Of a stretch of 64,000 nucleotides of DNA, positions 513 through 64,000 are shown piece after piece. This DNA comes from Eledone cirrhosa (Eukaryota). The stretch covers positions 19,468,001-19,532,000 of the forward strand of contig OZ024766.1 of assembly GCA_964016885.1 (NCBI GenBank). The letters are read 5' to 3'. The notes beneath the pieces are model-generated. The model made no database searches and was not told the origin of the DNA. It saw nothing but the letters and a program-made list of their open reading frames with translations. A program made the translations under genes and the position numbers. Each line of letters starts with the position of its first letter. The first letter of the stretch is position 1.

Positions 513-584
513 CAAAATATTAACATTGGTGGCACTATTTTGGGTGAGTGATATGGTTTTTATCTTGTCTGAAAGTAATCTTTA

Positions 585-945
585 CAAGAGAATGATTTAC
601 CACAGACATCACAGTGATATAGTTCCTCTCCTGTAAATGTTAGTATCTAGTGAAGCCACAACATTTAGAGAAGGATTTACTGCAGACATCACAGTGATAT
701 AGTTCCTCTCCTGTAAACGTTAGTGCCGAATGAAGTGAGTTATTTCAGAGAATGATTTCCCACAGATATCACAGTGATATGGTCTCTCTCCTGTATGTAT
801 ATGTTTGTGTCTAGTTGAACAAGCTATCATGGATAACAATTTACCACAAATATTACAGTGATTGGCTTTTCTCCAGTATATATATGTTTGTATGAAGTTA
901 AGTAGCAATGAAAGAGAATTGCACAGTGGCATGGCTTCTCATATG
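585..945 (-). pseudogene. Degenerate zinc-finger relic in the 3'UTR of unit 1
   Basis: Frameshifted fingers (CNICGK..., [17 protein letters not shown]) plus 2 copies of the 80-bp unit motif. Confidence 0.85.
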
Positions 946-5900: not shown

Positions 5901-5907
5901 GATAGAT

Positions 5908-6183: not shown

Positions 6184-7139
6184 TGAATCTAAAAGTTCTC
6201 GCATCTGAGACCACCTATCGTGGCGAGTTTCCCACCATTGTCCTGTCAAGAGACAACAATGATGAACATGCATGCCACTGGACCTGTGACCCCAGCTTCA
6301 AGATAGCTGAAACTCACATGGCTACTCATAAATCAACCTTGTATACACATCTAGCTATAGGGTTATTATAAATACAAGTATAAAGGGAATCCAGCAGCCA
6401 GACCACGAAGCAGTAGTCCTTAAGAGAATAATGATGTGAAACATTCACGTTCTACAGACCTCTTGGGGTCTGCAGACTTCTACTGACCTTTTACTCTATC
6501 TCTCTCCTGGCTCTCACCTTCTCGGCCACAGACTACACCACCAAACAAGAGAGACCGAAGCAGCAGTCCTTGAGAGGAATAACAAATAGTAAGGATACAC
6601 ACACACTCAGTAGGTTTCATTATACTGTTTACTTCTGTGTTTTATCTATTCTTTTGTCTTCCTGTTGAATCACTTCTCGTGTATCGTTGTATTGATACAT
6701 ACATACACGCTAGCTCGAAGTAGCTAGTCAGCAAATTGATGTAGTGATAATTCCTGTCACAATTTTTATTACTTGATATTCAATGTAGCAACAAGTTAAT
6801 ATTGTTATTGTAAAATAAACATTGTCAACATCACAATTCTGGCATTATTCTTTTTATCATTCATACACAAAAGAATACATTTATCCACTACATATTCAAC
6901 AAACAAAAGGGGACACAAACTTCTACACACATACATTCACATATATATAACGTATGTAAATTCTGAACGATACAGATTTGTCAGCACAAGTCTTGGTTAC
7001 AACTTCTACAAATAAAATGAAAGGAGAAGAATTTCTTAGTAAAACAGTTTTATTCAAAATGTTAACATTGGTGGCACTATTTTGGGTGTGTGGTATGGTT
7101 TTTATCTTGTCTGATTGTGTTGCATTAAGTAATCTTTAC

Positions 7140-7660
7140 AAGAGAATGATTTACCACAGACATCACAGTGATAAAGTTCCTCTCCTGTATATGTTAGTGT
7201 CTAGTGAAGCCCCAACATTTAGACAACGATTTACTGCAGACATCACAGTGATATGGTTCCTCTCCTGTATATGTTAGTGTCTAGTGAAGCCACAACATTT
7301 AGACAATGATTTACTGCAGACATTACAGTGATATAGTTCCTCTCCTGTAAATGTTAGTGTCTAGTGAAGCCACAATATTTAGAGAAGGCTTTACCACAGA
7401 CATTACAGTGATATAGTTCCTCTCCTATAAATGTTAGTGCCGAATGAAGTGAGTTATTTCAGAGAATGATTTCCCACAGATATCACAGTGATATGGTTTC
7501 TCTCCTGTATGCATATGTTTGTGTCTAGTTGAACAAGCTATCATGGATAACAATTTACCACAAATATTACAGTGATTGGCTTTTCTCCAGTATATATATG
7601 TTTGTATGAAGTTAAGTAGCAATGAAAGAGAATAGCCCAGTGGCATGGCTTCTCATATGA
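7140..7660 (-). pseudogene. Degenerate zinc-finger relic / 80-bp satellite, unit 2 (4 motifs)
   Basis: TTCCTCTCCT at 7177, 7257, 7337, 7417. Confidence 0.85.
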
Positions 7661-7710
7661 ATGTATTTGTGTTTAATTCACCATTGTCAGACATTGAGAT
7701 ATTTTTTTCG

Positions 7711-10866: not shown

Positions 10867-11962
<1,096 letters not shown>

Positions 11963-12217
11963 AAATTTCACCAGAGATAGAAAACCAGAATTAGTCATTT
12001 AGTTTACACAATGAGACCACAACCCATCCTATTTATTTTAAATGGGTGGGGTGAATTAAGAGTGGGGTGGTGGTGTAAAAAATCTGAAAATTAAATGAGT
12101 GAGGGTGGGGGAAAATTATTTGAGACCTAAACGAGGGTAGGGGACAATTATTTGAGACCAAAGTGAGGGTGGGGAACGATTACATCAGAAAAAAGTGAGG
12201 GTGGGGGACAATTATTT

Positions 12218-14545: not shown

Positions 14546-15956
14546 CAAGTTCCAGACGTCAGACCTTCAATATATCCATACCCAGGGAGGCAAGGCATTC
14601 AGAGTATGGTAGATACTTGATGGAGGGTATTCACTTGGTTGCACGTCTCTAAGCAAATTCCAGGAGGTCAATGATCTGAGCAAGACAGGGGTTCCAGACT
14701 CGTGATGCAATTTCTAAGTGTGGCCGCACCATAGCTATTTACAGCTTTAAATAGATAGATAAATGCATGGTTGTACACATGTACACAGCCAGCTTGAGTT
14801 GCCAGTCCGTGGTCCATTGCTGCATTGTGTCCAGATCTAGTGTTCAGGATCTGTCCTTTTTATCTCAAGGGACAGCTCGATGTCATATGCATATTTCAGT
14901 ACTGTGACACTCTTTAAGTTGCCATCTATGTCATTAATAGATGTGTAACGGAATTCTCCTATAAATTACCTGCCGAAGATTCAAAACCGAATCTAAAAGT
15001 TCTCGCATCTGGGACCACCTATCGTTGCGAGTTTCCCACCATTGTCCTGTCAAGAGACAGCAATGATGAACATACATGCCACTTGACCTGTGACCCCAGC
15101 TTCAAGATAGCTGAAACTCACGTGGCTACTCATAAATCAACCCTGTATACACATCCTTCTAGCTATAGGGTTATTATAAATACAAGTACAAAGGGAATCC
15201 AGCAGCCAGACCACGAAGCAGTAGTCCTTAAGAGAAAAATGTGAAACATTCACATTCTACAGACCTCTTGGGGTCTACAGACTTCTACTGACCTTTTACT
15301 CTATCTCTCTCTCCTGGCCTTACTGGCTCTCACCTTCTTGGCCACAGACTACGCCACCAGACAAGAGAGACCGAAGAAGCAGTCCTTGAGAGGAATAACA
15401 AATACTAAGGATACACACACACTCAGTAGGTTTCATTATACTGTTTACTTCTGGGTTTTATCTATTCTTTTGTCTTCCTGTTGAATCACTTCTCGTGTAT
15501 CATTGTATTGATACATACATACACGCTAGCTCGAAGTAGCTAGTCAGCAAATTGATGTAGTGATAATTCCTGTCACAATTTTTATTACTTGATGTTCAAT
15601 GTAGACACAAGTGAATATTGTTATTGTAAAATAAACATTGTCAACATCACAATTCTGGCATTATTCTTTTTATCATTCATACACAAAAGAATACATTTAT
15701 CCACTACATATGCAACAAACAAAAGGGGACACAAATTTCTACACACATACATTCACATATATATAGCGTGTGTAAATTCTGAACAATACAGATTTGTCAG
15801 CACAAGTCTTGGTTACAACTTCTACAAATAAAATGAAAGGAGAAGAATTTCTTAGTAAAACAGTTTTATTCAAAATATTAACATTGGTGGCACAATTTTG
15901 GGTGAGTGGTATGGTTTTTATCTTGTCTGATTGTGTTGCATTAAGTAATCTTTACA

Positions 15957-16400
15957 AGAGAATAATTTACCACAGACATCACAGTGATATAGTTCCTCTC
16001 CTGTATATGTTAGTGTGTAGTGAAGCCCCAACATTTAGACAATGATTTACTGCAGACATTACAGTGATATGGTTCCTCTCCTGTAAATGTTAGTGTCTAG
16101 TGAAGCCACAACATTTAGAGAATGATTTACTGAAGACATTACAGTGATATAGTTCCTCTCCTGTGAATGTTAGTGCCGAATGAAGTGAGTTATTTCAGAG
16201 AATGATTTCCCACAGATATCACAGTGATATGGTTTCTGTCCTGTATGTATGTGTTTGTGTCTAATTGAACAAGCTATCATGGATAACAATTTACCACAAA
16301 TATTACAGTGATATGGCTTTTCTCCAGTATATATATGTTTGTATGAAGGTAAGTAGCAATGAAAGAGAATAGCACAGTGGCATGGCTTCTCATATGAATG
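15957..16400 (-). pseudogene. Degenerate zinc-finger relic / 80-bp satellite, unit 3 (3 motifs)
   Basis: Motif at 15993, 16073, 16153. Confidence 0.85.
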
Positions 16401-22210: not shown

Positions 22211-22502
22211 TTCTTTTTATCATTCATACACAAAAGAATACATTTATCCACTACATATGCAACAAACAAAAGGGGACACAAATTTCTACACACATACATT
22301 CACATATATATAGCGTGTGTAAATTCTGAACGCTACAGATTTGTCAGCACAAGTCTTGGTTACAACTTCAACAAATAAAATGAAAGGAAAAGAATTTCTT
22401 AGTAAAACAGTTTTATTCAACATATTAACATTGGTGGCACTATTTTGGGTGAGTGATATGGTTTTTATCTTGTCTGATTGTGTTGCATTAAGTAATCTTT
22501 AC

Positions 22503-22780
22503 AAGAGAATGATTTACCACAGACATCACAGTGATATAGTTCCTCTCCTGTATATGTTAGTGTCTAGTGAAGCCACAACATTTAGACAATGATTTATTGC
22601 AGACATTACAGTGATATAGTTCCTCTCCTGTATATGTTAGTGTCTAGTGAAGCCACAATATTTAGAGAATGATTTCTCACAGATATCACAGTGATATGGT
22701 TTCTCTCCTGTATGTATATGTTTGTATGAAGTTAAGTGGCAATGAAAGAGAATAGCACAGTGGCATGGCTTCTCATATGA
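22503..22780 (-). pseudogene. Degenerate zinc-finger relic, unit 4 (2 motifs, internally deleted)
   Basis: Motif at 22540, 22620; lacks the EITHFIRH/MIACSTRH segments seen in other units. Confidence 0.8.
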
Positions 22781-27733: not shown

Positions 27734-28846
27734 CAAGTTCCAGACGTTGGACCTTCAATGTATCCATACCCAGGGAGGCAAGGCATTCAGAGTATGGTAG
27801 ATGGTTGATGGAGCATATTCACTTGGTTGCACGTCTCTAAACAATTTCCAGGAGGTCAATGTTCTGAGCAAGACAGGGGTTCCAGACTGGTGATTCAATT
27901 TCTAAGTGTGGCCACACCATAGCTATTTACAGCTTTAAATAGATAGATAAATGCATGGTCGTACACTTGTACACAGCCAGCTTCAGTTGCCAGTCCGTGG
28001 TCCATTGCTCCATGGCTACTCATAAATCAACCCTGTATACACATCTAGCTATAGGGTTATTATAAATACAAGTACAAAGGGAATCCAGCAGCCAGACCAC
28101 GAAGCACTAGTCCTTAAGAGAATAATGATGTGAAACATTCACATTCTACAGACCCCTTGGGGTCTACAGACTTCTACTGACCTTTTACTCTATCTCTCTC
28201 TCCTGGCCTTACTGGCTCTCACCTTCTTGGCCACAGACTACGCCACCAAACAAGAGAGACCGAAGCAGCAGTCCTTGAGAGGAATAACAAATACTAAGGA
28301 TACACACACACTCAGTAGGTTTCATTATACTGTTTACTTCTGTGTTTTATCTATTCTTTCGTCTTCCTGTTGAATCACTTCTCTTGTGTCGTTGTATTGA
28401 TACATAAATACACGCTAGCTCGAAGTAGCTAGTCAGAAAATTGATGTAGTGATAATTCCTGTCACAAATTTTATTACTTGATATTCAATGTAGCAACAAG
28501 TTAATATTGTTATTGTAAAATAAACATTGTCAACATCACAATTCTGGCATTATTCTTTTTATCATTCATACACAAAAGAATACATTTATCCACTACATAT
28601 GCAACAAATAAAAGGGGACACAAATTTCAACACACATACATTTCACATATATATAGAGAATGTAAATTCTGAACAATACAGATTTGTCAGCACAAGTCTT
28701 GGTTACAAATTCTACAAATAAAATGAAAGGGGAAGAATTTCTTAGTAAAACAGTTTTATTCAAAATATTAACATTGGTGGCACTATTTTGGGTGAGTGAT
28801 ATGGTTTTTATCTTGTCTGATTGTGTTGCATTAAGTAATTTTTACA

Positions 28847-29680
28847 AGAGAATGATTTACCACAGACATCAGAGTGATATAGTTCCTCTCCTGTATATGT
28901 TAGTGTCTAGTGAAGCCCCAACATTTAGACAATGATTTACCAGACATCACAGTGATATGGTTCCTCTCCTATATATGGTAGTGTGTAGTGAAGCCACAAC
29001 ATTTAGACAATGATTTACCAGACATCACAGTGATATGGTTCCTCTCCTGTATATGGTAGTGTCTAGAGAAGCCCCAACATTTAGACAATGATTTACCAGA
29101 CATCACAGTGATATGGTTCCTCTCCTGTAAATGTTATTGTCTAGTGAAGCCACAACATTTAGACAATGATTTACTGCAGACATTACAGTGATGTAGTTCC
29201 TCTCCTGTAAATGTTAGTCTAGTGAAGCCACAATATTTAGAGAAGGATTTACTGCAGACATCACAGTGATATAGTTCCTCTCCTGTAAATGTTAGTGTGT
29301 AGTGAAGCCACAACATATAGAGAATGATTTACCACAGACATCACAGTGATATGGTTCCTCTCCTGTAAATGTTAGTGTCTAGTGAAGCCACAACATTTAG
29401 AGAAGGATTTACCACGGACATCACAGTGATATAGTTCCTCTCCTGTAAATGTTAGTGCCGAATGAAGTGAGTTATTTCAGAGAATGATTTCCCACAGATA
29501 TCACAGTGATATGGTTTCTCTCCTGTATGTATATGTTTGTGTCTAGTTGAACAAGCTATCATGGATAACAATTTACCACAAATTTTACAGTGATATGGCT
29601 TTTCTCCAGTACATATATGTTTGTATGAAGTTAATGCAGCAATGAAAGAGAATAGCACAGTGGCATGGCTTCTCATATGA
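28847..29680 (-). pseudogene. Degenerate zinc-finger relic / 77-80-bp satellite, unit 5 (8 motifs)
   Basis: Repeats read TGEELYHCDVCSKSFSKYCGFTR in shifting frames. Confidence 0.85.
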
Positions 29681-32016: not shown

Positions 32017-33067
32017 GTTTCTTCTTCCCTTGGCAGAATTTACAGATGTTATTCTTGTCTTATTTTATATATTATATTCCTGAAGATATTACTTCTGCAA
32101 TATTTCCGTCAACGGTGATCTCAGTCAAGATCTGAAGATGATGCAAACTTCTTTCTGATCCAAGTTTAGTTAAGATTCAAAATCATCTTGTAAATATTTC
32201 AGATGTTGATGAAACAATACTTTTCCAAGAATTTTTCCAAGACACACAGTTCTGAGGAAATATTTCACACTAATTCTGCCATAGATTTATATAAACAGTG
32301 TTATATGAGTTCTGTATCAAAAGCTTTAGTCTTGAAATGATGATAAATAGAGGGGATGTATTCAAGATTAAAAAATAATTTTATCCCAATGTCATCTGAT
32401 ATTCTGAAATAAGAAAGAAACAGTATGAGATAATAGAGAATACTTTAGAAACAGAGATAGATTTAACATTGGAAATTTTATATTTCTATATTGATAAACT
32501 GTAGATATCAACTTTCCTGTCCAGAGTTATTCTCTCCAATGTAAGCAGTGATATTCCACGATGCTCTATAAACTATATCCTTCTAACTCTTGGGAGGTCT
32601 GCCCTATAGCCTTTACCCAAGAACTTCATTCTTATATGACATTCTAACATGGTAATTGTCTGAGACCTGAGATGTGTAACTTGACAGTTCCTTGGGTAAT
32701 AGTTCTTTCTACCTGGAAGGGGAAAAGTGCTGTGTAATTGCTTGATAACAGTCAAAGGATTCTCACACATGGCAACCCTAGGCACCCCAAAAACATGACT
32801 TGTGTTAGGCTTGTAGACACAATTAGTGGGAATTTTTATTCGTAGGGATTACATAATTTTAGCGCTATTTTTTTTCTTTTCACTCATCAACCACTTTACA
32901 GCAAGGACTGGGTGTATTGTTTGTGGCACTAGAGAGGTTATTTTACTGGTCTTAAGAGCTCATATACATACATATATATATACATATGTATAGATATTTA
33001 TATATATATACATATGTATATATACATATATATATACATACATGTATATATACATATGTATATATAC

Positions 33068-33098: not shown

Positions 33099-33357
33099 CA
33101 TATAAATCACACCAGAGATAGAAAACCAGAATTAGTCATTTAGTTTTCATAATGAGACCACAACCCGTCCTATTTATTTTAAATGGGTGGGGTGAATTAA
33201 GAGTGGGGTGGTGGTGTAAAAAATCTCAAAATTAAATGAGTGAGGGTGGGGGAAAATTATTTGAGACCTAAGTGAAGGTAGAGGACAATTATTTGAGACC
33301 AAAGTGAGGGTGGGGAACGATTATTTCGGACCAAAGTTAGAGTGGGGGACAATTATT

Positions 33358-34216
33358 TGAGCTACACACACATCTGAGTTATACACACATCTACTGAGTT
33401 ATACACACATCTACTGAGTTACATACACATCTACTGAGTTACACACAATCTACTGAGTTACACACACATCTACTGAGTTATACACACATCTACTGAGTTA
33501 TACACACATCTACTGAGTTACAGACACATCTGAGTTACACAAATGTCTACTGAGTTACATACACATCTACTGAGTTACACACACATCTACTGAGTTACAC
33601 ACACATCTAGTGAGTTACACACACATCTACTGAGTTACACACACATCTACTGAGTTACACACACATCTACTGAGTTACACACACATCTACTGAGTTACAT
33701 ACACAGCTACTGAGTTACACACATCTACTGAGTTACACACACATCAACTGAGTTACACACACATCTACTGAGTTACACACACATCTACTGAGTAACACAC
33801 ATCTGAGTTACACACACATCTACTGAGTTATACACACATCTACTGAGTTATACACACATCTAGTGAGTTACACACACATCTACTGAGTTACACACACATC
33901 TACTGAGTTACACACACATCTACTGAGTTACACACATCTACAGAGTTACACATATCTACTGAGTTACACACACATCTACTGATTTACACACACATCTACT
34001 GAGTTATACACACATCTACAGAGTTATACACACATCTACTGAGTTACACACACATCTGAGTTATACACACATCTACTGAGTTATACACACATCTACTGAG
34101 TTATACACACATCTACTGAGTTATACACATCTACATAGTTACACACACATCTACTGAGTTACACACACATCTACTGAGTTACACACACATCAACTGAGTT
34201 ACACACACATCTACTC
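33358..34216 (+). repeat. 20-bp minisatellite, unit 5
   Basis: Same consensus. Confidence 0.97.
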
Positions 34217-35730: not shown

Positions 35731-36639
35731 AGTTCCAGACGTTGGACCTTCAATGTATCCATACCCAGGGAGGCAAGGCATTCAGAGTATGGTAGATGGT
35801 TGATGGAGCGTATTCACTTGGTTGCACGTCTCTAAACAATTTCCAGGAGGTCAATGTTCTGAGCAAGACAGGGGTTCCAGACTGGTGATGCAATTTCTAA
35901 GTGTGGCCACACCATAGCTATTTACAGCTTTAAATAGATAGATAAATGCATGGTCGTACACATGTACACAGCCAGCTTTAGTTGCCAGTCCGTGGTTCAT
36001 TGCTGCATTGTGTCCAGATCTAGTGTTCAGGATCTGTCCTTTTTATCTCAAGGGACAGCTTGATGTCATCTGCATATTTCAGTACTGTGACATACTTTAA
36101 GTTGCCACCTATGTCATTAATAGATGTGTAACGGAATTCTCCTATAAATTACCTGGCGAAGATTCAAAACCGAATCTAAAAGTTCTCGCATCTGGGACCA
36201 CCTATCGTTGCGAGTTTCCCACCATTGTCCTGTCAAGAGACAACAATGATAAACATACATGCCACTTGACCTGTGACCCCAGCTTCAAGATAGCTGAAAC
36301 TCACATGGCTACTCATAAATCAACCCCGTATACACATCTAGCTATAGGGTTATTATAAATACAAGTACAAAGGGAATCCAGCAGCCAGACCACGAAGCAG
36401 TAGTCCTTAAGACAATAATGATGTGAAACATTCACATTCTACAGACCTCTTGGGGTCTGCAGACTTCTACTGACCTTTTACTCTGTCTCTCTTGGTTACA
36501 ACTTCTACAAATAAAATGAAAGGAGAAGAATTTCTTAGTAAAACAGTTTTATTCAAAATATTAACATTGGTGGCACTATTTTGGGTGAGTGATATGGTTT
36601 TTATCTTGTCTGATTGTGTTGCATTAAGTAATCTTTACA

Positions 36640-37240
36640 AGAGAATGATTTACCACAGACATCACAGTGATATAGTTCCTCTCCTGTATATGTTAGTGTG
36701 TAGGGAAGCCCCAACATTTAGACAATGATTTACCAGACATCACAGTGATATGGTTCCTCTCCTGTATATGTTAGTGTCTCTAGTGAAGCCACAACATTTA
36801 GAGAATGATTTACTGCAGACATTACAGTGATATGGTTCCTCTCCTGTATATGTTAGTGTCTAGTGAAGCCACAACATTTAGACAATGATTTTCTGCAGAC
36901 ATTACAGTGATATGGTTCCTCTCCTGTATATGTTAGTGTCTAGTGAAGCCACAATATTTAGAGAAGGATATACTGCAGACATTACAGTGATATAGTTCCT
37001 CTCCTGTAAATGTTAGTGCCGAATGAAGTGAGTTATTTCAGAGAATGATTTCCCACAGATATCACAGTGATATGGTTTCTCTCCTGTACGTATATGTTTG
37101 TGTCTAATTGAATAAGCTATCATGGATAACAATTTACCACAAATATTACAGTGATTGGCTTTTCTCCAGTATATATATGTTTGTATGAAGTTAAGTAGCA
37201 ATGAAAGAGAATAGCCCAGTGGCATGGCTTCTCATATGAA
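36640..37240 (-). pseudogene. Degenerate zinc-finger relic / 80-bp satellite, unit 6 (5 motifs)
   Basis: Motif at ~36676, 36754, 36836, 36916, 36996. Confidence 0.85.
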
Positions 37241-40456: not shown

Positions 40457-41260
40457 TCAGGGAAATGGCCATGTTCGATATGCAGAAAAGGAACTGGCAT
40501 AAATTCTATAAAATGCACACAATGTAGGTCCTGGGTACACAAGAGATGTAGCGGGATAGCAGGCAAACTAACAGGTAGGGAGAAATATGTATGCAGTAGA
40601 TGTACAGGGAAATTAGACAGTAGAAGTCGCACTGATAGACACATTTTTCAAATGCGAGAGGGCGCTATAGAAGTGGTGGATAGCTTCCGGTACCTAGGAG
40701 ATCAGATTAGCATGGGAGGAGGGTGTTCCGAGGCCATAGTATCTAGAATAAGGACGGGTTGGAAGAAGTTTAGGGAGCTGCTTCCTCTGTTGACGAAGAA
40801 GGGTTTCTCCCTGCGTACGAAAGGCTGGTTGTATGATGCCTGTGTGAGGAGCGCGATGCTGCATGGTAGTGAGACATGGGCAGCTACCGCAGAAGATATG
40901 CGACGGCTGGAGAGAAATGAGGCAAGCATGCTCCGTTGGATGTGCAGTGTAAATGTGCGTGAACGACCCAGCATAAATGTGTTGAGAGAGAAACTGTGTC
41001 TGAGAGGGATAGAATGTAGTGTACGGGAGAGGAGACTGAGGTGGTATGGACATGTGATGCGCATGGAGGATGACCGATGGGTGAAGAAGTGCCAGGAAAT
41101 GCCAGTTGAAGGAAGACGTAGTAGAGGTAGACCACGAAAAACATGGGCGGAGGTGGTGAGAACAGACCTCAGATCATTGAAGCTCACGGTGGAGATGACG
41201 AGGGACCGTGACGAGTGGAGAGATGCTGTGCTAAATAAGACCCGTCCCACCCTTGCAAGC
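40457..41260 (+). mobile_element. Young 5'-truncated RTE-clade LINE fragment (Cys-rich insert + RT C-terminus) inside the TA tract
   Basis: Open frame [12 protein letters not shown]...WVHKRCSG...FRYLG...LHGSETW...[10 protein letters not shown]...GRPRKTW; more GC-rich than flanks; only in unit 6. Confidence 0.92.
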
Positions 41261-41355: not shown

Positions 41356-41630
41356 CATATATATACATATATATATACATATATATACATATATATATAC
41401 ATATATATATACATATATATATACATATATATATATATACATATAAATTTCACCAGAGATAGAAAACCAGAATTAGTTATTTAGTTTACACAATGAGACC
41501 ACAACCCGTCCTATTTATTTTAAATGGGTGGGGTGAATTAAGAGTGGGGTGGTGGTGTAAAAAATCTGAAAATTAAATGAGGGTGGGGGAAAATTATTTG
41601 AGACCTAAACGAGGGTAGGGGACAATTATT

Positions 41631-42176
41631 TGAGCTACACACACATCTACTGAGTTACACACACATCTACTGAGTTACATACACATCTACTGAGTTACAT
41701 ACACATCTACTGAGTTACACACACATCTACTTAGTTACACACACATCAACTGAGTTACATACACATCTACTGAGTTATACACACATCTACTGAGTTACAC
41801 ACACATCTACCGAGTTATACACACATCTACTGAGTTATACACACATCTACTGAGTTAGACACACATCGGAGTTACATACACATCTACTGATTTACACACA
41901 TCGGAGTTACATACACATCTACTGAGTTACACACACATCTACTGAGTTATACACACATCTGAGTTACACACACATCTACTGAGTTACACACACATCTACT
42001 GGGTTATACACACATCTACTGAGTTATACACATCTACTGAGTAACACACACATCTACTGAGTTATACACATCTACTGAGTTACACACACATCTACTGAGT
42101 TATACACACATCTACTGAGTTATACACACATCTACTGAGTTATACACACATCTACTGAGTTATACACACATCTACT
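41631..42176 (+). repeat. 20-bp minisatellite, unit 6
   Basis: Same consensus. Confidence 0.97.
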
Positions 42177-42860: not shown

Positions 42861-43127
42861 ACACCAGGTCCGAAAAAGAAATAGAGAAAGTACAGGTTCG
42901 CAGTGAATATCTCAAGAATTATTTTATTACTAGTTTTGTAAATAACATTACAAATTATACTTAGACGAAGAATGTGGAGTAGTAAATATATATATATATA
43001 CACATGAATATGTGTATATATATATATATACATACACATAAATATGTGTGTATATATATATACATACACATAAATATGTGTATATATATATACACATAAA
43101 TATGTGTATATATATATATATATATAT

Positions 43128-43570
43128 AATTACCAATGAATACAGTGAAGAATTTAGTATAAAAGTTGGTGTTCATCAAGGCTCTGTCCTTAGCCCCCTT
43201 GTATTTATTATTGCCCTTCAGGCTAAAACAGAGGAGTTTAAGACTGGCTGCCCATGGGAACTTCTATACACAGATGATCTAACAGCTGAACTAGATAAGA
43301 TATTCCAAACATGGAAGCATGGCCTAGAATCAAAAGGCCTTAAAGTTAACTTGTCTAAGACTAAAGTTCTAGTATGTAGGAAGGAAAATAGGGCACAGGT
43401 GCCCTCTGGGAAATGGCCATGTTCAGTGTGTAGGAAAGGAGTAGGTAGAAATTCCATTTTATTTCCCAAATACAAACTATGGGTACATAACAGACGTACT
43501 GGGAACACAGGCCAGCTATCTAAGAACGTAGATTTTATATGTGGCTGATGCTCAGGTGCAATAAGTAGCA
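43128..43570 (+). mobile_element. Old RTE LINE RT fragment copy (frame intact)
   Basis: ORF 43048-43548 spans QGSVLSP to YTDD to the Cys motif. Confidence 0.9.
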
Positions 43571-44962
43571 AGTTCCAGACGTCGGACCTTCAATGTATCC
43601 ATACCCAGGGAGGCAAGGCATTCAGAGTATGGTAGATACTTGATGGAGGGTATTCACTTGGTTGCACGTCTCTAAACAATTTCCAGATCAATGTTCTGAG
43701 CAAGACAGGGGTTCCAGACTGGTGATGCAAATTCTAAGTGTGGCCGCACCATAGCTATTTACAGCTTTAAATAGATAGATAAATGCATGGTCGTACACTT
43801 GTACACAGCCAGCTTGAGTTGCCAGTCCGTGGTCCATTGCTGCATTGTGTCCAGATCTATAGTGTTCAGGATCTGTCCTATTTATCTCAAAGGACAGCTT
43901 GATGTCATCTGCATATTTCAGTACTGTGACACTCTTTAAGTTGCCATCTATGTCATTAATAGATGTGTAACGGAATTCTCCTATAAATTACTTGCCGAAT
44001 CTAAAAGTTCTCGCATCTGGGACCACCTATCGTTGCGAGTTTCCCACCATTGTCCTGTCAAGAGACAACAATGATGAACATACATGCCACTTGACCTGTG
44101 ACCCCAGCTTCAAGATAGCTGAAACTCACATGGCTACTCATAAATCAACCCTGTATACACATCCTTCTAGCTATAGGGTTATTATAAATACAAGTACAAA
44201 GGGAATCCAGCAGCCAGACCACGAAGCAGTAGTCCTTAAGAGAATAATGATGTGAAACATTCACATTCTACAGACCTCTTGGTGTCTACAGACTTCTACT
44301 GACCTCTCTGGACCTTTTACTCTATCTCTCTCTCCTGGCCTTACTGGCTCTCACCTTCTTGGCCACAGACTACACCACCAAACAAGAGAGACCGAAGCAC
44401 CAGTCCTTGAGAGGAATAACAAATACTAAGGATACACACACACTCAGTAGGTTTCATTATACTGTTTACTTCTGTGTTTTATCTATTCTTTTGTCTTCCT
44501 GTTGAATCACTTCTCGTGTATCGTTGTATTGATACATACATACACGCTAGCTCGAAGTAGCTAGTCAGCAAATTGATGTAGTGATAATTCCTGTCACAAA
44601 TTTTTATTACTTGATATTCAATGTAGCAACAAGTTAATATTGTTATTGTAAAATAAACATTGTCAACATCACAATTCTGGCATTATTCTTTTTATCATTC
44701 ATACACAGAAGAATACATTTATCCACTACATATGCAACAAACAAAAGGGGACACAAATTTCTACACACATACATTCACATATATATAGCGTATGTAAATT
44801 CTGAACGATACAGATTTGTCAGCACAAGTCTTGGTTACAACTTCTACAAATAAAATGAAAGAAGAATTTTTTAGTAAAACAGTTTTATTCAAAATATTAA
44901 CGTTGGTGGCACTATTTTGGGTGAGTGATATGGTTTTTATCTTGTCTGAAAGTAATCTTTAC

Positions 44963-46040
44963 AAGAGAATGATTTACCACAGACATAACAGTGATATAGT
45001 TCCTCTCCTGTATATGTTAGTGTGTAGTGAAGCCCCAACATTTAGACAATGATTTACTGCAGACATTACAGTGATATGGTTCCTCTCCTGTATATGTTAG
45101 TGTCTAGTGAAGCCACAACATTTAGACAATGATTTACCACAGACATCACAGTGATATAGTTCCTCTCCTGTATATGTTAGTGTCTAGTGAAGCCAAAACA
45201 TTTAGACAATGATTTACCACAGACATCACAGTGATATAGTTCCTCTCCTGTATATGTTAGTGTGTAGTGAAGCCACAACATTTAGACAATGATTTACCAC
45301 AGACATCACAGTGATATAGTTCCTCTCCTGTATATGTTAGTGTCTAGTGAAGCCACAATATTTAGAGAAGGATTTACTGCAGACATCACAGTGATATAGT
45401 TCCTCTCCTGTATATGTTAGTGTCTAGTGAAGCCACAACATTTAGACAATGATTTGCCAGACATCACAGTGATATGGTTCCTCTCCTGTATATGCTAGAG
45501 TCTAGTGAAGCCCCAACATTTAGACAATGATTTACTGCAGACATTACAGTGATATGGTTCCTCTCCTGTATATGATAGTGTCTAATGAAGCCACAACATT
45601 TAGACAATGATTTACTGCAGACATTACAGTGATATGGTTTCTCTCCTGTATATGTTAGTGTCTAGTGAAGCCACAATATTTAGAGAAGGATTTACTGCAG
45701 ACATTACAGTGATATGGTTCCTCTCCTGTATATGTTAGTGTCTTGTGAAGCCACAACATTTAGACAATGATTTACCACAGACATCACAGTGATATAGTTC
45801 CTCTCCTGTATATGTTGGTGTCTAGTAAAGCCACAATATTTAGAGAATGATTTCCCACAGATATCACAGTGATATAGTTCCTCTCCTGTCTGTATATGCT
45901 TGTGTCTAGTTGAACAAGCTATCATGGATAACAATTTGCCACAAATATTACAGTGATTGGCTTTTCTCCAGTATATATATGTTTGTATGAAGTTAAGTAG
46001 CAATGAAAGAGAATAGCACAGTGGCATGGCTTCTCATATG
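44963..46040 (-). repeat. Zinc-finger-derived 80-bp satellite, unit 7 (12 motifs)
   Basis: TCCTCTCCTG at 45001, 45081, 45161, 45241, 45321, 45401, then ~45479-45879 at 80-bp period. Confidence 0.9.
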
Positions 46041-46091
46041 AATGTATTTGTGTTTAATTCACCATTGTCAGACAATGAGATATTTTTTTGG

Positions 46092-47369
46092 TTATGGGTT
46101 CTCAGTCATATGGGTACGTTTGTGTCTAGTTAAGGTACCACCTTCAGTGAATGATTTACCACAGATATCACAGTGGTATGGCTTGTCTCCTGTATGGGTA
46201 CGTAAGTGTTTAGTTAAGCTACTTCTTTCAGTGAATGATATACCACAGGTATCACAGTGGTATGGCTTGTCTCCTGTATGTATACGTTTGTGTCTAGTTA
46301 ATGTACCATTTATAAAGAATGATTTACCACAGATATCACAGTGGTATGGCTTGTCTCCTGTATGGGTACGTAAGTGTGAAGTTAAGTTACTACTATCAGA
46401 GAATGATTTACCACAGATATCACAGTGGTATGGCTGGTCTCCTGTATGTATACGTTTGTGTCTAGTTAAGGTACTACTAACAGAGAATGATATACCACAG
46501 ATATCACAGTGGTATGGCTTGTCGCCTGTATGTATACGTTTGTGTGTAGTTAAGTGACTACTATCAGAGAATGATTTACCACAGATATCACAGAGGTGTG
46601 GCTTCTCTCCTGTATGTATACGTTTGTGGGAAGTTAAGTGGCTACTTTGAGAGAATGATTTACCACAGACATCGCAGTGGTATGGCTTGTCTGCTGTATG
46701 GGTATATTTGTGTTTAGTTAAGTCACTACTATCAGAGAATGATATACCACAGATATCACAGTGGTATGGCTTGTCTCCTGTATGTATACGTATGTGTCTA
46801 GTTAAGGTACTACTTCGAGAGAATGATTTACCACAGATATCACAGTGGTGTGGCTTCTCTCCTGTATGCATACGTTTGTGGCAAGTTAACTGACCACTTT
46901 GAGAGAATGATTTACCACAGATATCGCAGTGGTATGGCTTGTCTCCTGTATGTATACGTTTGTGTGGAATTAACTGACCATTTCGAGAGAATGATTTACC
47001 ACAGATTTCGCAGTGGTATGGCTTGTCTCCTGTATGTATACGATTGTGGCAAGTTAAGTGGCTACTTTGAGAGAATGATTTACCACAGATATCACAATGG
47101 TATGGCTTGTCTCCTGTATGTGTACGTTTGTGTGGAATTAACTGACCACTTCCAGAGAATGATTTACCACAGATTTCGCAGTGGTATGGCTTGTCTCCTG
47201 TATGTATACGTATGTGTCTAGTTAAGTTACTACTTATATAGAATGATTTACCACAGACATCACAGTGATATGGTTTCTCTCCTCTAGACTTTGGCATCTC
47301 TTCTGGAATAGCTATATCTCTAGACAATGTTTCACATTTAATCTTCTTTTCACTCAATTTAGTTTCCAT
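46092..47369 (-). CDS. Poly-C2H2 zinc-finger protein, unit 7 (14 fingers)
   Basis: 425-aa ORF, near-identical finger order to unit 4. Confidence 0.93.
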
Positions 47370-48677
47370 GTTTCTTCTTACCTTGGCAGAATTTACAGAT
47401 GTTATTCTTGTCTTATTTTATATATTATATTCCTGAAGATATTTCTTCTGCTATATTTCCGGCAACGGTGATCTCAGTCAAGATCTGAAGATGATGCAAA
47501 CTTCTTTCTGATCCAAGTTTAGTTAAGATTCAAAATAATCTTGTAAATATTTCAGATGCTGATGAAACAATACTTTTCCAAGACACACAGTTCTGAGGAA
47601 ATATCTCACACTAATTCTGCCGTAGATTTATATAAACAGTGTTATATGAGTTCTGTATCAAAACCTTTAGTCTTGAAATGATGATAAATAGAGGGGATGT
47701 ATTCAAGATTAAAAAATTATTTTATCCCAATGTCATTTGATATTCTGAAATAAGAAAGAAACATGATGAGACAATAGAGAATACTTTAGAAACAGAGATA
47801 GATTTAACATTGGAAATTTTATATTTCTATATTGATAAACCAGATATCAACTTTCCTGTCCAGAGTTATTCTCTCCAATGTAAGCAGTGATATTCCACGA
47901 TGCTCTATAAACTATATCCTTCTAACTTTTGGGAGGTCTGCCCTATAGCCTTTACCCAAGAACTTCATTCTTATATGACATTCTAACATGGTAATTGTCT
48001 GAGACCTGAGATGTGTAACTTGACAGTTCCTTGAGTAACAGTTCTTTCTACCTGGAAGAGAAAAAGTGCTGTGTAATTGCTTGATAACAGTCAAAGGATT
48101 CTCACACATGGCTACCCTAGGCACCCCAATAACATGACTTGTGTTAGGCTTGTAGACACAATTAGTGGGAATTTTTATTCGTAGGGATTACATAATTTAA
48201 GCACTATTTTTTATCTTTTCTGTTTGGATGCCTTTACTCTCATCAACCACTTTACAGCAAGGACTGGGTGTACTGTTTGTGACACTAGAGAGGTTATTTT
48301 AATGGTCTTAAGAGCTCATATACATACATATATATACATATGTATAAATATTTATATGTCTATACTTATATATACATATATATATATACATATAAATTTC
48401 ACCAGATAGAAAACCCGAATTAGTCATTTAGTTTACATAATGAGACCACAACCCATCCTATTTATTTTAAATGGGTGGGGTGAATTAAGAGTGGGGAGGT
48501 GGTGTAAAAAATCTGAAAATTAAATGAGTGAGGGAGGGGGGAAATTATTTGAGACCTAAGCGAGGGTAGGGGACAATTATTTGAGTCCAAAGTGAGGGTG
48601 GTGAACGATTATTTCAGAAAAAAGTGAGGGTGGGGAACGATTATTTGAGACCAAAGTGAAGGTGGGGGACAATTATT

Positions 48678-48965
48678 TGAGCTACACACACATCTACTGA
48701 GTTACACACACATCTACTGAGTTATACACACATCTACTGAGTTATATGCATCTAATGAGTTACACACACACACATCTACTGAGTTACACACACATCTACT
48801 GAGTTACATACACATCTACTGAGTTACACACACATTTACTGAGTTACATACACATCTACAGAGTTACACACACATCTACTGAGTTATACACACATCTACT
48901 GAGTTATACACACATCTACTGAGTTACACACACATCTACTGAGTTATACACACATCTACATAGTT
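48678..48965 (+). repeat. 20-bp minisatellite, unit 7 (shortest)
   Basis: Same consensus, ~14 copies. Confidence 0.97.
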
Positions 48966-51180: not shown

Positions 51181-52408
51181 TCATAAATCAACCCTGTATA
51201 CACATCCTTCTAGCTATAGGGTAATTATAAATACAAGTACAAAGGGAATCCAGCAGCCAGACCACAAAGCAGTAGTGCTTGAGGGAATAATGATGTGAAA
51301 CATTCACGTTCTACAGACCCCTTGGGGTCTACAGACTTCTACTGACCTTTTACTATATCCCTCTCTCCTGGCCTTACTGGCTCTCACTTTCTTGGCCACA
51401 GACTACACCACCAAACAAGAGAGACCGAAGCAGCAGTCCTTGAGAGGAATAACAAATACTAAGGATACACACACACTCAGTAGGTTTCATTATACTGTTT
51501 ACTACTGTGTTTTATCTATTATTTCGTCTTCCTGTTGAATCACTTCTATTGTATCGTTGTATTGATACATACATACACGCTAGCTCGAAGTAGCTAGTCA
51601 GCAAATTGATGTAGTGATAATTCCTGTCACAAATTTTATTACTTGATATTCAATGTAGCAACAAGTTAATATTGTTATTGTAAAATAAACATTGTCAACA
51701 TCACAATTCTGGCATTATTCTTTTTATCATTCATACACAAAAGAATACATTTATCCACTACATATGCAACAAATAAATGGGGACACAAATTTCAACACAC
51801 ATACATTCACATATATATAGCGTATGTAAATTCTGAACGATACAGATTTGTCAGCACAAGTCTTGGTTACAACTTCTACAAATGAAATGAAAGGGGAAGA
51901 ATTTCTTAGTAAAACAGTTTTATTCAAAATATTAACATTGGTGGCACTATTTTGGGTGAGTGATATGGTTTTTATCTTGTCTGAAAGTAATCTTTACAAG
52001 AGAATGATTTACCACAGACATCACAGTGATATAGTTCCTCTCCTGTAAATGTTAGTATCTAGTGAAGCCACAACATTTAGAGAAGGATTTACTGCAGACA
52101 TCACAGTGATATAGTTCCTCTCCTGTAAACGTTAGTGCCGAATGAAGTGAGTTATTTCAGAGAATGATTTCCCACAGATATCACAGTGATATGGTCTCTC
52201 TCCTGTATGTATATGTTTGTGTCTAGTTGAACAAGCTATCATGGATAACAATTTACCACAAATATTACAGTGATTGGCTTTTCTCCAGTATATATATGTT
52301 TGTATGAAGTTAAGTAGCAATGAAAGAGAATTGCACAGTGGCATGGCTTCTCATATGAATGTATTTGTGTTTAATTCACCATTTTCAGACAATGAGATAT
52401 TTTTTTGG

Positions 52409-53602
52409 TTATGGGTTCTCACCCATATGGGTATATTTGTGCCTAGTTAAACTACTTGATACAGAGAATGATTTACCACAGATATCGCAGTGGTATGACT
52501 TGTCTCCTGTATGGGTACGTATGTGTTTAGTTAAGTTACTACTTGCAGAGAAGGATTTGCCACAGATATCGCAGTGGTATGGCCTGTCTCCTGTATGTAT
52601 ACGTAAGTGTTTAGTTAAGGTACTACTTACAGAGAATGATTTACCACAGATATCACAGTGGTATGGCTTGTCTCCTGTATGGGTACGTTTGTGTGCAGTT
52701 AAACTACTTGATACAGAGAACGATTTACCACAGATATCACAGTGGTATGACTTGTCTCCTGTATGGGTACGTAAGTGTTTAATTAAGGTACTACTATCAG
52801 AGAATGATTTACGACAGATATCACAGTGGTATGGCCTGTCTCCTGTATGTATACGTTTGTGTCTACTTAAGTTACTACTTCCAGAGAATGATATACCACA
52901 GATATCACAGTGGTATGGTTTGTCTCCAGTGTGGGTACGTTCGTGTTTAGTTAAGGTACCACCTTCAGAGAATGATTTACCACAGATATTACAGTGGTAT
53001 GGCTTGTCTCCTGTATGGGGACGTAAATGTGTAGTTAACTTACTACTATCAGAGAATGATTTACCAGAGATATCGCAGCGGTATGGCCTGTCTCCTGTAT
53101 GGGTACGTTTGTGTTTAGTTAAGGTACCACCTTCAGAGAATGATTTACCACAGATATCGCAGCGATATGGCCTGTCTCCTGTATGGGTACGTTTGTGTCT
53201 AGTTAAGGTACCACTTTCAGAGAATGATTTACCACAGATTTCGCAGTGGTATGGCTTGTCTCTTGAATGTGTACGTTTGTGGCAAGTTAAGTTACTACTA
53301 TCAGAGAATGATCTACCACAGATATCACAGTGGTATGGCTTGTCTCCTGTATGTATACGTTTGTGTCTAGTTAAGTCACTACTTTGAGAGAATGATTTAC
53401 CACAGATATCACAGTGGTATGGCTTGTCTCCTGTATGTGTACGTTTGTGTGGAATTAACTGACCATTTTGAGAGAATGATTTACCACAGACACCACAGTG
53501 ATATGGTTTCTCTCCTCTAGACTCTGGCATCTCTGCTGGAATAGCCATATCTCTAGACAATGTTTCACATTTAATCTTCTTCACACTCAATTTCGTTTCC
53601 AT
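52409..53602 (-). CDS. Poly-C2H2 zinc-finger protein, unit 8 (copy of unit 1, 13 fingers)
   Basis: 397 aa; differs from unit 1 only at KSFF vs KSFS in finger 7. Confidence 0.92.
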
Positions 53603-54278
53603 GTTTCTTCTTCCCTTAGCAGAATTTACAGATGTTATTCTCGTCTTATTTTATATATTATATTCGTGAAGATATTTCTTCTGCTATATTTCCGGCAACG
53701 GTGATCTCAGTCAAGATCTGAAGATGATGTAAACTTCTTTCTGATCCAAGTTTAGTTAAGATTTGAAATCATCTTGTAAATATTTCAGATGCTGATGAAA
53801 CAATACTTTTCCAAGAGACACAGTTCTGAGGAAATATTTCACAGTAATTCTGCCATAGATTTATATAAACAGTGTTATATGAGTTCCGTATCAAAAGCTT
53901 TAGTCTTGAAATGATGATAAATAGAGGGGATGTATTCAAGATTAAAAAAATAATTTTATCCCAATGTCATCTGATATTCTGAAATAAGAAAAAAACAGTA
54001 TGAGATAATAGAGAATACTTTAGAAACAGAGATAGATTTAACATTGGAAATTTTATATTTCTATATTGATAAACTGTAGATATCAACTTTCCTGTCCAGA
54101 GTAATTCTCTCTATTTTTTATCTTTTCTGTTTGGATGCCTTTCCACTCATCAACCACTTTACAGCAAGGACTGGGTGTATTGTTTGTGGCACTAGAGAGG
54201 TTATTTTAATGGTCTTAAGAGCTCATATATATACATACATATATATATACATATGTGTAGATATTTATATATATATAC

Positions 54279-54325
<47 letters not shown>

Positions 54326-54616
54326 CATATAAATTTCACCAGAGATAGAACACCAGAATTAGTCATTTAGTTTACATAATGAGACCACAACACATCCTAG
54401 TTATTTTAAATGGGTGGGATGAATTAAGAGTAGGGTGGTGGTGTAAAAAATCTGAGAATTAAATGAGTGAGGGTGGGGGAAAATTATTTGAGACCTAAGC
54501 TAGGGTAGGGGACAATTATTTGAGACGAAAGTGAGGGTGGGGAACGATTATTTCAGAAAAAAGTGAGGGTGGGGGACAATTATTTGAGACCAAAATGAGG
54601 GTGGGGGACAATTATT

Positions 54617-55446
54617 TGAGTTACACACACATCTGCTGAGTTACACACACATCTACTGTGTTACATACACATCTACTGAGTTATACACACATCTACTGAG
54701 TTATATACATCTAATGAGTTACACACACATCTACTGAGTTACACACACATCCACTGAGCTACACACACATCTACTGAGTTACACACACATCTACTGAGTT
54801 ACACAAACATCTACTGAGTTACACAAACATCTACTGAGTTACACACACATCTACTGAGTTACATACACATCTACTGAGCTACACACACATCTGAGTTACA
54901 CACATCTACAGTTATACACACATCTACTGAGTTACACACACATCTACTGAGTTACACACACGTCTACTGAGTTACACACACATCTACTGAGCTACACACA
55001 CATCTACTGAGTTACATACACATCTACTGAGTTACACACACATCTACAGAGTTACATACACATCTACTGAGTTACACACACATCTACAGAGTTACATACA
55101 CATCTACTGAGTTACACACACATCTACTGAGTTACACACACATCTACTGGGTTACACACACATCTACTGAGTTACATACACATCTACTGAGTTATACACA
55201 CATTTACTGAGCTACACACACATCAACTGAGTTACACACACATCTACTGAGTTACACACACATCTACTGAGTTACACACACGTCTACTGAGTTACATACA
55301 CATCTGAGTTACACACACATCTACAGAGTTACATACACATCTACTGAGTTACACACACATCTACTGAGTTACACACACATCTACAGAGTTACACACACAT
55401 CTACAGAGTTACATACACATCTACTGAGTTACACACACATCTACTC
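54617..55446 (+). repeat. 20-bp minisatellite, unit 8
   Basis: As unit 1 plus about 3 extra monomers, two of them an ACACAAAC variant. Confidence 0.97.
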
Positions 55447-56087
55447 ATACATATTTATAAATAGACACATTATACAAAATAATTATTATATACACTCACA
55501 TCTATGAATGATTGAGGAAGAGCTGGTGAAACACTATAGCAATATGTGTTTCACCCCTTTTGGTTTTACCAGCTACATAGCCTATCCGTATTCTTATATC
55601 AGATGTGTAGGTGTATTATCTTGTCTAGTATGTATAATGTATGTATGTATATATACAATACATATACACATATATATATGCATATATACATGAATACATA
55701 TATATATATATACATATATTTATACTTTATATATATATATATACTTTATATATATAAAGTATATATAAATATTTAGACAGAAAATACGGGAAAAATTAGT
55801 CAGAAATATTTTAAATATAAAACGGAATAAATTAATGAAAGAAACGTAAAACAGATAAAAATTGTTGAAATACCTTGAAAATATAAAATATAGAAGAAAG
55901 AGGCAGGAATTGATTGAGTTTGAAGTAAATTAATGAATGAACGAAAGTAGGTGGGGCAGGAACAGGAAGTAAAGACAGTAGAGTCTCGCAGTAAATGGTA
56001 AGGTTTAGAGTAAGAATTATTTTATTCCTGGTTGTATAAATAACATTACAAATAGCACAAATATCAAATAGATAAAAATATATATAC

Positions 56088-56140
<53 letters not shown>

Positions 56141-56360
56141 GTCCGAACAGCAAGTACAGTCTCGCAGTGAATGGTAAGTGTTAGGGGAAGAATTATTTTA
56201 TTCCTGGTTGTATAAATAACATTAAAAATATCAAATAGATAAAAAAAATATACGTACACATATATTTTACCTTTCTCTCTCTATATATATATATATACGT
56301 AAACACACATACTCTATGGTGCAACACAAAAAATATGTGTATATATATATATATAGTGAA

Positions 56361-56392
<32 letters not shown>

Positions 56393-57243
56393 GTGAATAT
56401 CATTTCACACCTTTTATTGTGAAGATTTTTGATGTTCTAAGAGAACCGATTTTACTGAAAATATCGAATAATGTACACCATTTTACCAGGGGAAAAAATA
56501 CTGGTCTACCCACCCACACACATATAAACACACACACACACACGCGTACATTAACATACAAAGAGACTTATACACACACACACACTTCTCCGTATAAGAC
56601 AAAAGCTGAAAAATATCTTTTGACATGCTAAAATACCCCCCACTGCTTACAGACACATTCCTACTGACCATCCCGCTACCATGAATTACTCTGCTATACA
56701 CACACACACACACACTTATCTTAATAGCCAATTGACACACATCCCTGCTAACCATTATCACAACATCGAACACTTTACTACTACTACACACACACACACA
56801 TATTTGTTGTGAAAGAGACATTTCTCAGTCTTGGCGCAAAATCAATTTTTTATTCACATGACCTCTACCGACCAATCAAAATTGTTTGGACCACAAGAAT
56901 TTTTGCAACACCAAATAGTGCTGGAGCAACTTTTTTTAGCATAAAAACAGGTAGAATTCCCAAAACTAATCAGATCAGAGCAAACAACACGGACACTCCA
57001 TCTCAAAATTATTTTTGAAAAGTATCTAGAAATGCGCAATCGGTAATAACTTAAAAACACAACTGAATACTAACCCATACAATTACTAATACTCTTTTAT
57101 TCCTAATTAAACCATCTTTAAACTGAACAATTTGTCAGCATTTTCTAACCTGTTTACAAATAAATAAAACAAACAAACAAACAAACAAACAAACAGACAA
57201 ACAAACAAACAAACAAACAAACAAACAAACAAACAAACAAACA

Positions 57244-57311
<68 letters not shown>

Positions 57312-57318
57312 GATAGAT

Positions 57319-57594
57319 AGGCACATGGCTTAATTGTTAGAGCATTGACCTTGCAATGGAAAGGTTGTGAGTTCAATTCTCAGACCAGGTGGTGTGTTTT
57401 TTCCTTGAGCAAGACAATTTATTAAACATTGCTCCAGTTTACTCAGCTGTAGAAATGTGATGATAGGGACTGAGATCCATATAATTCCACTGCAAAAAAG
57501 CACCCACCACTCACTGTAAATGAAGTTGGTGTTAGGAAGGGCATCCAGCTGTAGAAATCAAGCCAGAATCAGTTCCCATCCCACCCTTGCAAGC
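57319..57594 (+). mobile_element. Copy of the 5908-6183 SINE
   Basis: Matching sequence in the second higher-order copy. Confidence 0.75.
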
Positions 57595-59121
57595 TGAATC
57601 TAAAAGTTCTCGCATCTGAGACCACCTATCGTGGCGAGTTTCCCACCATTGTCCTGTCAAGAGACAACAATGATGAACATGCATGCCACTGGACCTGTGA
57701 CCCCAGCTTCAAGATAGCTGAAACTCACATGGCTACTCATAAATCAACCTTGTATACACATCTAGCTATAGGGTTATTATAAATACAAGTATAAAGGGAA
57801 TCCAGCAGCCAGACCACGAAGCAGTAGTCCTTAAGAGAATAATGATGTGAAACATTCACGTTCTACAGACCTCTTGGGGTCTGCAGACTTCTACTGACCT
57901 TTTACTCTATCTCTCTCCTGGCTCTCACCTTCTCGGCCACAGACTACACCACCAAACAAGAGAGACCGAAGCAGCAGTCCTTGAGAGGAATAACAAATAG
58001 TAAGGATACACACACACTCAGTAGGTTTCATTATACTGTTTACTTCTGTGTTTTATCTATTCTTTTGTCTTCCTGTTGAATCACTTCTCGTGTATCGTTG
58101 TATTGATACATACATACACGCTAGCTCGAAGTAGCTAGTCAGCAAATTGATGTAGTGATAATTCCTGTCACAATTTTTATTACTTGATATTCAATGTAGC
58201 AACAAGTTAATATTGTTATTGTAAAATAAACATTGTCAACATCACAATTCTGGCATTATTCTTTTTATCATTCATACACAAAAGAATACATTTATCCACT
58301 ACATATTCAACAAACAAAAGGGGACACAAACTTCTACACACATACATTCACATATATATAACGTATGTAAATTCTGAACGATACAGATTTGTCAGCACAA
58401 GTCTTGGTTACAACTTCTACAAATAAAATGAAAGGAGAAGAATTTCTTAGTAAAACAGTTTTATTCAAAATGTTAACATTGGTGGCACTATTTTGGGTGT
58501 GTGGTATGGTTTTTATCTTGTCTGATTGTGTTGCATTAAGTAATCTTTACAAGAGAATGATTTACCACAGACATCACAGTGATAAAGTTCCTCTCCTGTA
58601 TATGTTAGTGTCTAGTGAAGCCCCAACATTTAGACAACGATTTACTGCAGACATCACAGTGATATGGTTCCTCTCCTGTATATGTTAGTGTCTAGTGAAG
58701 CCACAACATTTAGACAATGATTTACTGCAGACATTACAGTGATATAGTTCCTCTCCTGTAAATGTTAGTGTCTAGTGAAGCCACAATATTTAGAGAAGGA
58801 TTTACCACAGACATTACAGTGATATAGTTCCTCTCCTATAAATGTTAGTGCCGAATGAAGTGAGTTATTTCAGAGAATGATTTCCCACAGATATCACAGT
58901 GATATGGTTTCTCTCCTGTATGCATATGTTTGTGTCTAGTTGAACAAGCTATCATGGATAACAATTTACCACAAATATTACAGTGATTGGCTTTTCTCCA
59001 GTATATATATGTTTGTATGAAGTTAAGTAGCAATGAAAGAGAATAGCCCAGTGGCATGGCTTCTCATATGAATGTATTTGTGTTTAATTCACCATTGTCA
59101 GACATTGAGATATTTTTTTCG

Positions 59122-62445: not shown

Positions 62446-64000
<1,555 letters not shown>

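Follow-up and report, generated by a model that had tools for sequence, protein, structure and literature searches.

Behind each of nine tandem C2H2 zinc-finger genes of Eledone cirrhosa, between the stop codon and AATAAA, lies a tandem repeat with a period of about 80 bp. We consider it likely that this repeat is a non-coding minisatellite descended from one dead C2H2 finger, and that its copies are gained and lost neutrally through unequal crossing-over. On this reading, one locus displays a life cycle in which fingers are shed by stop codons, a dead finger becomes a repeat family, and that family turns over beside an array under selection.

Gene cluster and paralogs

The window, by which we mean the whole 64,000-nt stretch of DNA analysed, contains nine gene units in tandem, 6-9 kb in size, every one of which includes a long minus-strand C2H2 zinc-finger ORF (ORF list and Pfam). 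Units 8-9 repeat units 1-2 at an offset of ~51.4 kb and are close to being copies of them, so that the distinct genes number seven; genes 8 and 9, the copies of 1 and 2, were excluded from the diversity, tree and selection counts. The recurrence may represent a very recent seven-gene duplication, or else an assembly copy. Flanks and tails are nearly identical between the two copies (1-11963 and 51413-63568), and gene 9 has 27 fingers, two of which look hybrid, compared to 25 in gene 2. The gene 7 ORF matches Pfam zf-C2H2 and zf-H2C2_2, and its coding array agrees with that of gene 4, both having 14 fingers with 0-6 differences per finger. Paralog flanks diverge by 3.0-3.7%, and a gene tree built from them gave no resolution. 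A whole-protein search was swamped by unrelated zinc-finger proteins (at least 8000 candidates, the best 120 being listed), and a search with the N-terminal 52 aa returned no matches; 0 of 8 predicted proteins occurred in the protein collection searched.

Other features of the cluster were observed in passing. The gene 5 coding array (29893-32064, minus strand) is mosaic-like, several of its fingers pairing with gene 1 fingers in the tree and two internal fingers clustering with terminal ones. TRF places a 20-bp minisatellite upstream of eight genes, with 14-49 copies depending on the unit, and a 32-bp repeat adjoins it in seven genes. Broken LINE pieces with a reverse-transcriptase match occur at 43042-43545 (plus strand) and at equivalent sites in other units, while a longer piece with a PHD-finger match was seen in unit 6 alone (40457-41260, plus strand). 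AT-type microsatellites of more than 1 kb stand upstream of genes 2 and 9 (10867-11963 and 62446-64000). We take the linker style, the AT microsatellites and the LINE fragments to resemble those of octopus C2H2 clusters.

Architecture of the gene tails

TRF reports the gene 7 array at 44964-45889 (11.6 copies, 92% matches, score 1523) and an array of ~80 bp behind the other eight zinc-finger ORFs also, so that the finger-like 80-bp repeat originally predicted between stop and AATAAA of every gene is present in nine of nine. When the tails are divided at the finger linker, they show a common plan (Table 1): the stop, ~120 nt of decayed remnants, a decayed 84-bp finger (in 8/9 genes), a first 80-bp unit (of a distinct type in 7/9), the core units, a terminal part-unit and then, in all nine genes, 56 nt and AATAAA. 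The gene 7 array thus laid out has eleven full units and a part unit (44946-45889, minus strand) between stop and AATAAA. Counts of ~80-bp units are 2, 4, 3, 2, 8, 5, 11, 2 and 4 for genes 1-9. The first six agree with the counts given in the original prediction; the 12 given there for gene 7 should read 11, because the terminal part-unit had been added for that gene and for no other.

Head-to-tail units numbering 2-11 according to locus are the mark of a variable-number minisatellite, and the distance from stop to AATAAA spans 414 to 1203 nt across genes. Unit number and coding finger number were not significantly correlated among the seven distinct genes (rho 0.50, p 0.26, n 7). In one gene 4 satellite unit a point change creates AATAAA at 22593-22598 (minus strand), a possible early polyadenylation signal, and gene 6 departs from the other genes ~60 nt past the proximal AATAAA (36553 onward, minus strand), apparently by deletion, and has no second AATAAA.

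Table 1. Coordinates of the zinc-finger gene tails and associated features in the window.
Feature	Position	Strand	Remarks
Gene 7 C2H2 ORF	46092..47417	-	stop to stop; first Met 47369; TAA 46092-46094; 14 fingers of 84 bp
Decayed finger remnant spacer, gene 7	45974..46091	-	directly behind stop
Decayed 84-bp finger, 'LLSM' type, gene 7	45890..45973	-	single copy in 8/9 genes
Gene 7 satellite	45012..45889	-	11 units, all 80 bp except one of 78 bp; first a putative deletion hybrid
Gene 7 terminal part-unit	44946..45011	-	66 bp in genes 1, 7, 8; 78 bp elsewhere
Proximal AATAAA	44884..44889	-	predicted polyadenylation signal, presumed in use; equivalent position in 9/9 genes
Second AATAAA	44603..44608	-	~280 nt beyond proximal; listed for 7/9 genes
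Gene 1 tail	569..794	-	2 units + terminal part-unit
Gene 2 tail	7111..7508	-	4 units + terminal part-unit
Gene 3 tail	15927..16244	-	3 units + terminal part-unit
Gene 4 tail	22474..22711	-	2 units + terminal part-unit; hybrid first unit as in gene 7; no decayed 84-bp finger
Gene 5 tail	28817..29526	-	8 units + terminal part-unit
Gene 6 tail	36610..37087	-	5 units + terminal part-unit
Gene 8 tail	51981..52206	-	identical to gene 1 tail
Gene 9 tail	58522..58919	-	1 base differs from gene 2 tail
Early stops, genes 3, 5, 6	16534, 29893, 37386	-	in last fingers
20-bp minisatellites	3052-3971, 12098-13178, 18925-19653, 25285-26080, 33239-34215, 41574-42176, 48527-48959, 54466-55445		upstream of genes; TRF

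The 80-bp unit is a dead finger

Genes 1-7 provide 30 core units, whose consensus, when aligned with that of the 84-bp coding fingers, shows 18 mismatches and a single 4-nt gap. The gap has four equally good placements, all within the last 8 nt, at the H-x3-H/linker end of the unit; the unit is 80 rather than 84 bp, with 4 nt lost at the HxxxH, as was proposed, and the consensus spells the finger quoted there. A stop follows directly after the first His in 26/30 units, while the DNA of the linker and Cys-x2-Cys is nearly unchanged. Unit length is 80 bp in 23 cases, 78 bp in six and 82 bp in one, and the 30 units record three separate 2-nt indel events, where coding units are only ever 84 or 78 bp long. 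All but one of the 30 (29/30) are distinct sequences. A 15-bp near-palindrome lies over the His-Cys-Asp-Ile codons of the first unit (45861-45875) and is partly retained in others.

The 80-bp units are a lineage apart from the coding fingers. For every one of the 30 core units the farthest fellow lies at a distance of 13.5 or less, and any coding finger at 16.5 or more. In a tree of 178 finger-like units over 84 columns, a branch with support of 97/93, from a bootstrap that had not settled, divides 42 rows of the 80-bp family from 136 rows of the 84-bp type. Both results bear out the view that the satellite is not mixed with the coding fingers. We suppose that ~22% divergence and the decayed spacer limit mixing with the coding array, and that selection against crossovers that truncate or frameshift the protein may contribute.

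Absence of protein constraint

Within the first 24 codons, 32 distinct satellite variants fall almost evenly on the old codon positions (10/11/11), and their division into 6 synonymous and 26 non-synonymous changes fits chance (binomial p 0.68). Among 113 coding fingers (first fingers and two 78-bp coding units set aside), the core C, C, F, L and H residues are intact in 111, and core pN/pS, carrier-weighted against the consensus and not a formal dN/dS, is 0.09. To judge from these counts, the satellite is without protein constraint. The most variable sites of the coding fingers are the helix positions (e.g. within 46092-47283), with pN/pS of 3.06 against 0.09 at core residues, which suggests diversifying selection there.

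Nor do the units contain a measurably conserved RNA motif or structure across the 30 core units. Four units fold worse than shuffled sequences (z +1.75), the inverted pairs are short and imperfect among the 25 of 38 listed, and an Rfam scan of 44000-48500 gave 0 matches. The word ACUAAC, presumably a STAR/QKI-type site, occurs in 24/30 units and varies more than average. Tests of neutrality concern the protein and two motifs, in 30 related units. Taken with the separate tree lineage and the lack of an open frame or usable splice signals described below, these results uphold the proposals that a coding repeat has become a non-coding minisatellite and that it is usable as an internal neutral comparison for the coding fingers.

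Gain, loss and exchange of units

Units differ by a mean of 6.86 positions within genes and 6.99 between genes (divergence 0.081 and 0.083). This equality makes them a family common to the paralogs; array-specific concerted evolution, which would make the units of one array resemble each other more than those of other arrays, was not found, and the description of the satellite as homogenised fails at the level of the gene. Since units differ among themselves by 8.3%, compared to 3.0-3.7% in the paralog flanks, we infer that several unit types predate the paralog split.

Footprints of unequal exchange, of the kind that characterises minisatellites, take the form of hybrid and near-identical units. 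In genes 4 and 7 the first unit resembles the first-unit type over its first 48 nt (1-2 differences) and the core type over its last 32 nt (0-2 differences), a hybrid that, by its two parentages, marks an apparent in-register deletion. Near-identical pairs number 7/87 within genes, all of them in gene 7, where four units stand 1-2 bases apart, and 5/348 between genes, one of these being an identical pair (one unit from gene 7, the other from gene 3). Units of genes 5, 6 and 7 have a 2-nt deletion in common, and in its short terminal unit gene 7 agrees with genes 1 and 8 rather than with gene 4. The coding arrays of genes 4 and 7 correspond, yet their satellites number 2 and 11 units. From these patterns the gene 7 array appears to have expanded, that of gene 5 has probably expanded too, given its three adjacent 78-bp units, and the remaining arrays seem contracted or static. 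In the recent copies, tail unit numbers are unchanged (0 and 1 base differences), while the gene 9 coding array has two more fingers than that of gene 2. The satellite had been described as expanding in every 3′ UTR, which does not hold, given a deletion hybrid in genes 4 and 7 and near-identical neighbours in gene 7 only.

Origin of the repeat

The founder of the repeat may have been shed from a coding array. In genes 3, 5 and 6, three of the seven distinct genes, a different stop interrupts the last one or two fingers of each, pushing those recent fingers behind the ORF, and the same shedding likely produced the older tail layers, including the founder of the 80-bp unit. Both shed fingers of gene 5 carry a Cys-to-stop change. 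One finger then lost 4 nt as well as any protein constraint, as the surviving units attest, and the 80-bp unit would have split into several types before the paralogs separated. Out-of-register exchange, whose footprints are visible both within and between paralogs, would subsequently have deleted, duplicated and swapped units, any effect of the units on the mRNA being a side effect. Some observations count against neutrality: at least two units are retained in all nine genes, terminal and first-type units differ by 2.0% between paralogs (the pairs being non-independent), compared to 3.0-3.7% in flanks, and the K-box heptamer discussed below has one variant where 3.2 are expected (P 0.15). Human remnant fingers altered the export and polyadenylation of reporters, and hence a neutral origin is compatible with an effect.

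Alternative explanations

We provisionally assign the array to the 3′ UTR from the positions of the stop and AATAAA. That it is instead absent from the mRNA, or read as coding sequence after splicing or editing, is very unlikely, despite the AG and GT that every unit carries at constant positions, a branch-point-like heptamer in 24/30 and an AATAAA within one gene 4 unit. The branch-like A lies only 8 nt before the AG, there is no pyrimidine tract, and the hexamer of the branch-like word has 6 variants where 2.8 are expected. The three sense frames of the gene 7 tail contain 15-18 stops each and a longest open run of 65 codons, which, together with the unsuitable branch-like word, makes coding rescue unlikely; neither an open frame nor workable 3′ splice signals, as a cryptic coding exon would need, were found in that tail. 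A weak search with the tail peptide among proteins of 192-2000 aa gave no candidate in-frame relative. In 8/9 genes no AATAAA occurs between the stop and the end of the array. Four public sequence runs (one organism, one study, 0.29-0.38 of words, none on record as RNA) were compared through their contigs, which are shorter than the array, over the gene 9 tail (57320-59200) in place of gene 7. Between the last finger and the terminal unit the depth of run X1 is 0.10-0.33 of that of run X2; the ratio is 0-0.03 across the 14 bins that begin at AATAAA, and 0.11-0.23 again over the far-end repeat. This drop resembles a transcript end at AATAAA, in one run and from contigs, which cannot show ends; two low-depth X1 contigs run across AATAAA. 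One X1 contig links the tail end just past AATAAA (59113) to the tail start (58448) and, because a matching piece occurs in DNA-sized runs, probably comes from a paralog with a doubled tail. It is likewise extremely improbable that the differences in copy number are assembly artefacts of a repetitive cluster. The near-exact repetition of units 1-2 by units 8-9 at 51.4 kb, a recent duplication or an assembly copy, would fit such an account; the distinctness of nearly all core units, the gene-specific variants and indels, and the coverage of the gene 9 tail repeat by contigs of all four public runs argue against it.

The His-Cys-Asp codons spell the K-box heptamer in 17/30 core units and 79/122 coding units, and the K-box, a target of miR-2, is among the top conserved 3′ UTR words in worms and flies (PMC1309705). 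Reporters carrying remnant fingers of the ZNF12 3′ UTR were nuclear and poorly adenylated in human cells, and finger-coding repeats are the targets of four miRNAs (PMC6242934). Selection might accordingly keep the array as a copy-number dial, each unit adding a miR-2-family seed site and finger RNA that slows export or polyadenylation, so that repression would grow with unit number, and the 2-7 K-box sites per tail and the spread of stop-to-AATAAA lengths would suit such a dial. We think this unlikely. A single substitution abolishes the K-box in 13/30 units, and the one distinct variant against 3.2 expected gives no significant conservation (P 0.15); the site is inherited from codons, coding arrays hold more of them than tails do (6-18 per gene), and the human effect is independent of DICER (PMC6242934) and is carried to this animal by analogy only. 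A search of the PMC9699675 supplements other than file 2 did not yield the seed letters of octopus miR-2. The wider idea that finger DNA doubles as RNA control, a dead finger being kept and its copy number of 2-11 setting the expression of each paralog apart from its protein, is also quite unlikely. The human reporter result makes an effect of the satellite on mRNA plausible, whether through miR-2 and the K-box or through nuclear retention; selection for that effect is a separate matter. As sister genes that are alike in coding array and have 2 and 11 units, genes 4 and 7 allow a direct test of the regulatory idea. We find hardly credible a chromatin role in which the units, by lengthening the stretch of finger DNA to which repressive chromatin is drawn at ZNF 3′ exons, would dampen expression or recombination in the cluster. 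H3K9me3 on the 3′ exon of human ZNF genes scales with finger number (PMC6242934), and linker and Cys-x2-Cys DNA is preserved almost intact in the units; but the cited mechanism depends on KRAB/KAP1, the best 25 of the 32 Pfam families matched by the gene 7 ORF do not include KRAB (upstream exons may still encode it), and recent exchange is abundant in the cluster.

Comparison with known systems

If neutral, the satellite offers a matched control for the rate at which finger arrays gain, lose and swap units, of use in assessing whether large ZNF expansions show selection on the number or the helix residues of their fingers. The satellite also urges caution, in that ORF and domain counts can take such tails for fingers. 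PRDM9-type coding minisatellites likewise consist of finger-length tandem units with unequal exchange and hybrid units; those units are in frame and selected, whereas the 80-bp units are frameshifted, stopped and unconstrained.

In Octopus bimaculoides, the regions flanking C2H2 genes are reportedly enriched in a tandem repeat of 70-90 bp (Albertin et al. 2015), which is said to have been likened to beta-satellite and not called finger-derived. Its period and its place beside C2H2 genes fit the present unit. The 80-bp unit may be the same repeat, which the supplement of that study may already describe and which our results may explain as finger-derived; our literature search found no paper quoting the sequence of the octopus repeat. 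In mostly non-subscription literature, including the accessible parts of PMC9795677, PMC10547256, PMC9115989, PMC9068888 and PMC9699675, we found no account of a frameshifted finger that has amplified into a repeat of its own.

The nearest parallels are human. Remnant fingers in ZNF 3′ UTRs are termed 'relatively common' (PMC6242934), and eleven complete and degenerate fingers follow the stop of ZNF252 (PMC2865497). As in ZNF12 (PMC6242934) and ZNF252 (PMC2865497), the tails described here place same-strand finger sequence behind the stop of a multi-finger ORF, and as in the human remnants the fingers are inactivated by stops or frameshifts, a stop being present in 26/30 units. A seed word recurring once per finger unit recalls both K-box/miR-2-family sites (PMC1309705) and the miRNA targets of finger repeats (PMC6242934); unlike in K-box/miR-2 arrays (PMC1309705), site conservation here, as judged from sequence alone, is not significant (P 0.15). 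The human remnants, as these articles describe them, are former fingers in decay, whereas the present tails hold a single frameshifted unit that has multiplied into a family of 2-11 copies with its own period, common to paralogs and isolated from the coding array. Human ZNF 3′ UTRs are known to carry remnant fingers; what is unusual here is the independent amplification of a frameshifted unit.
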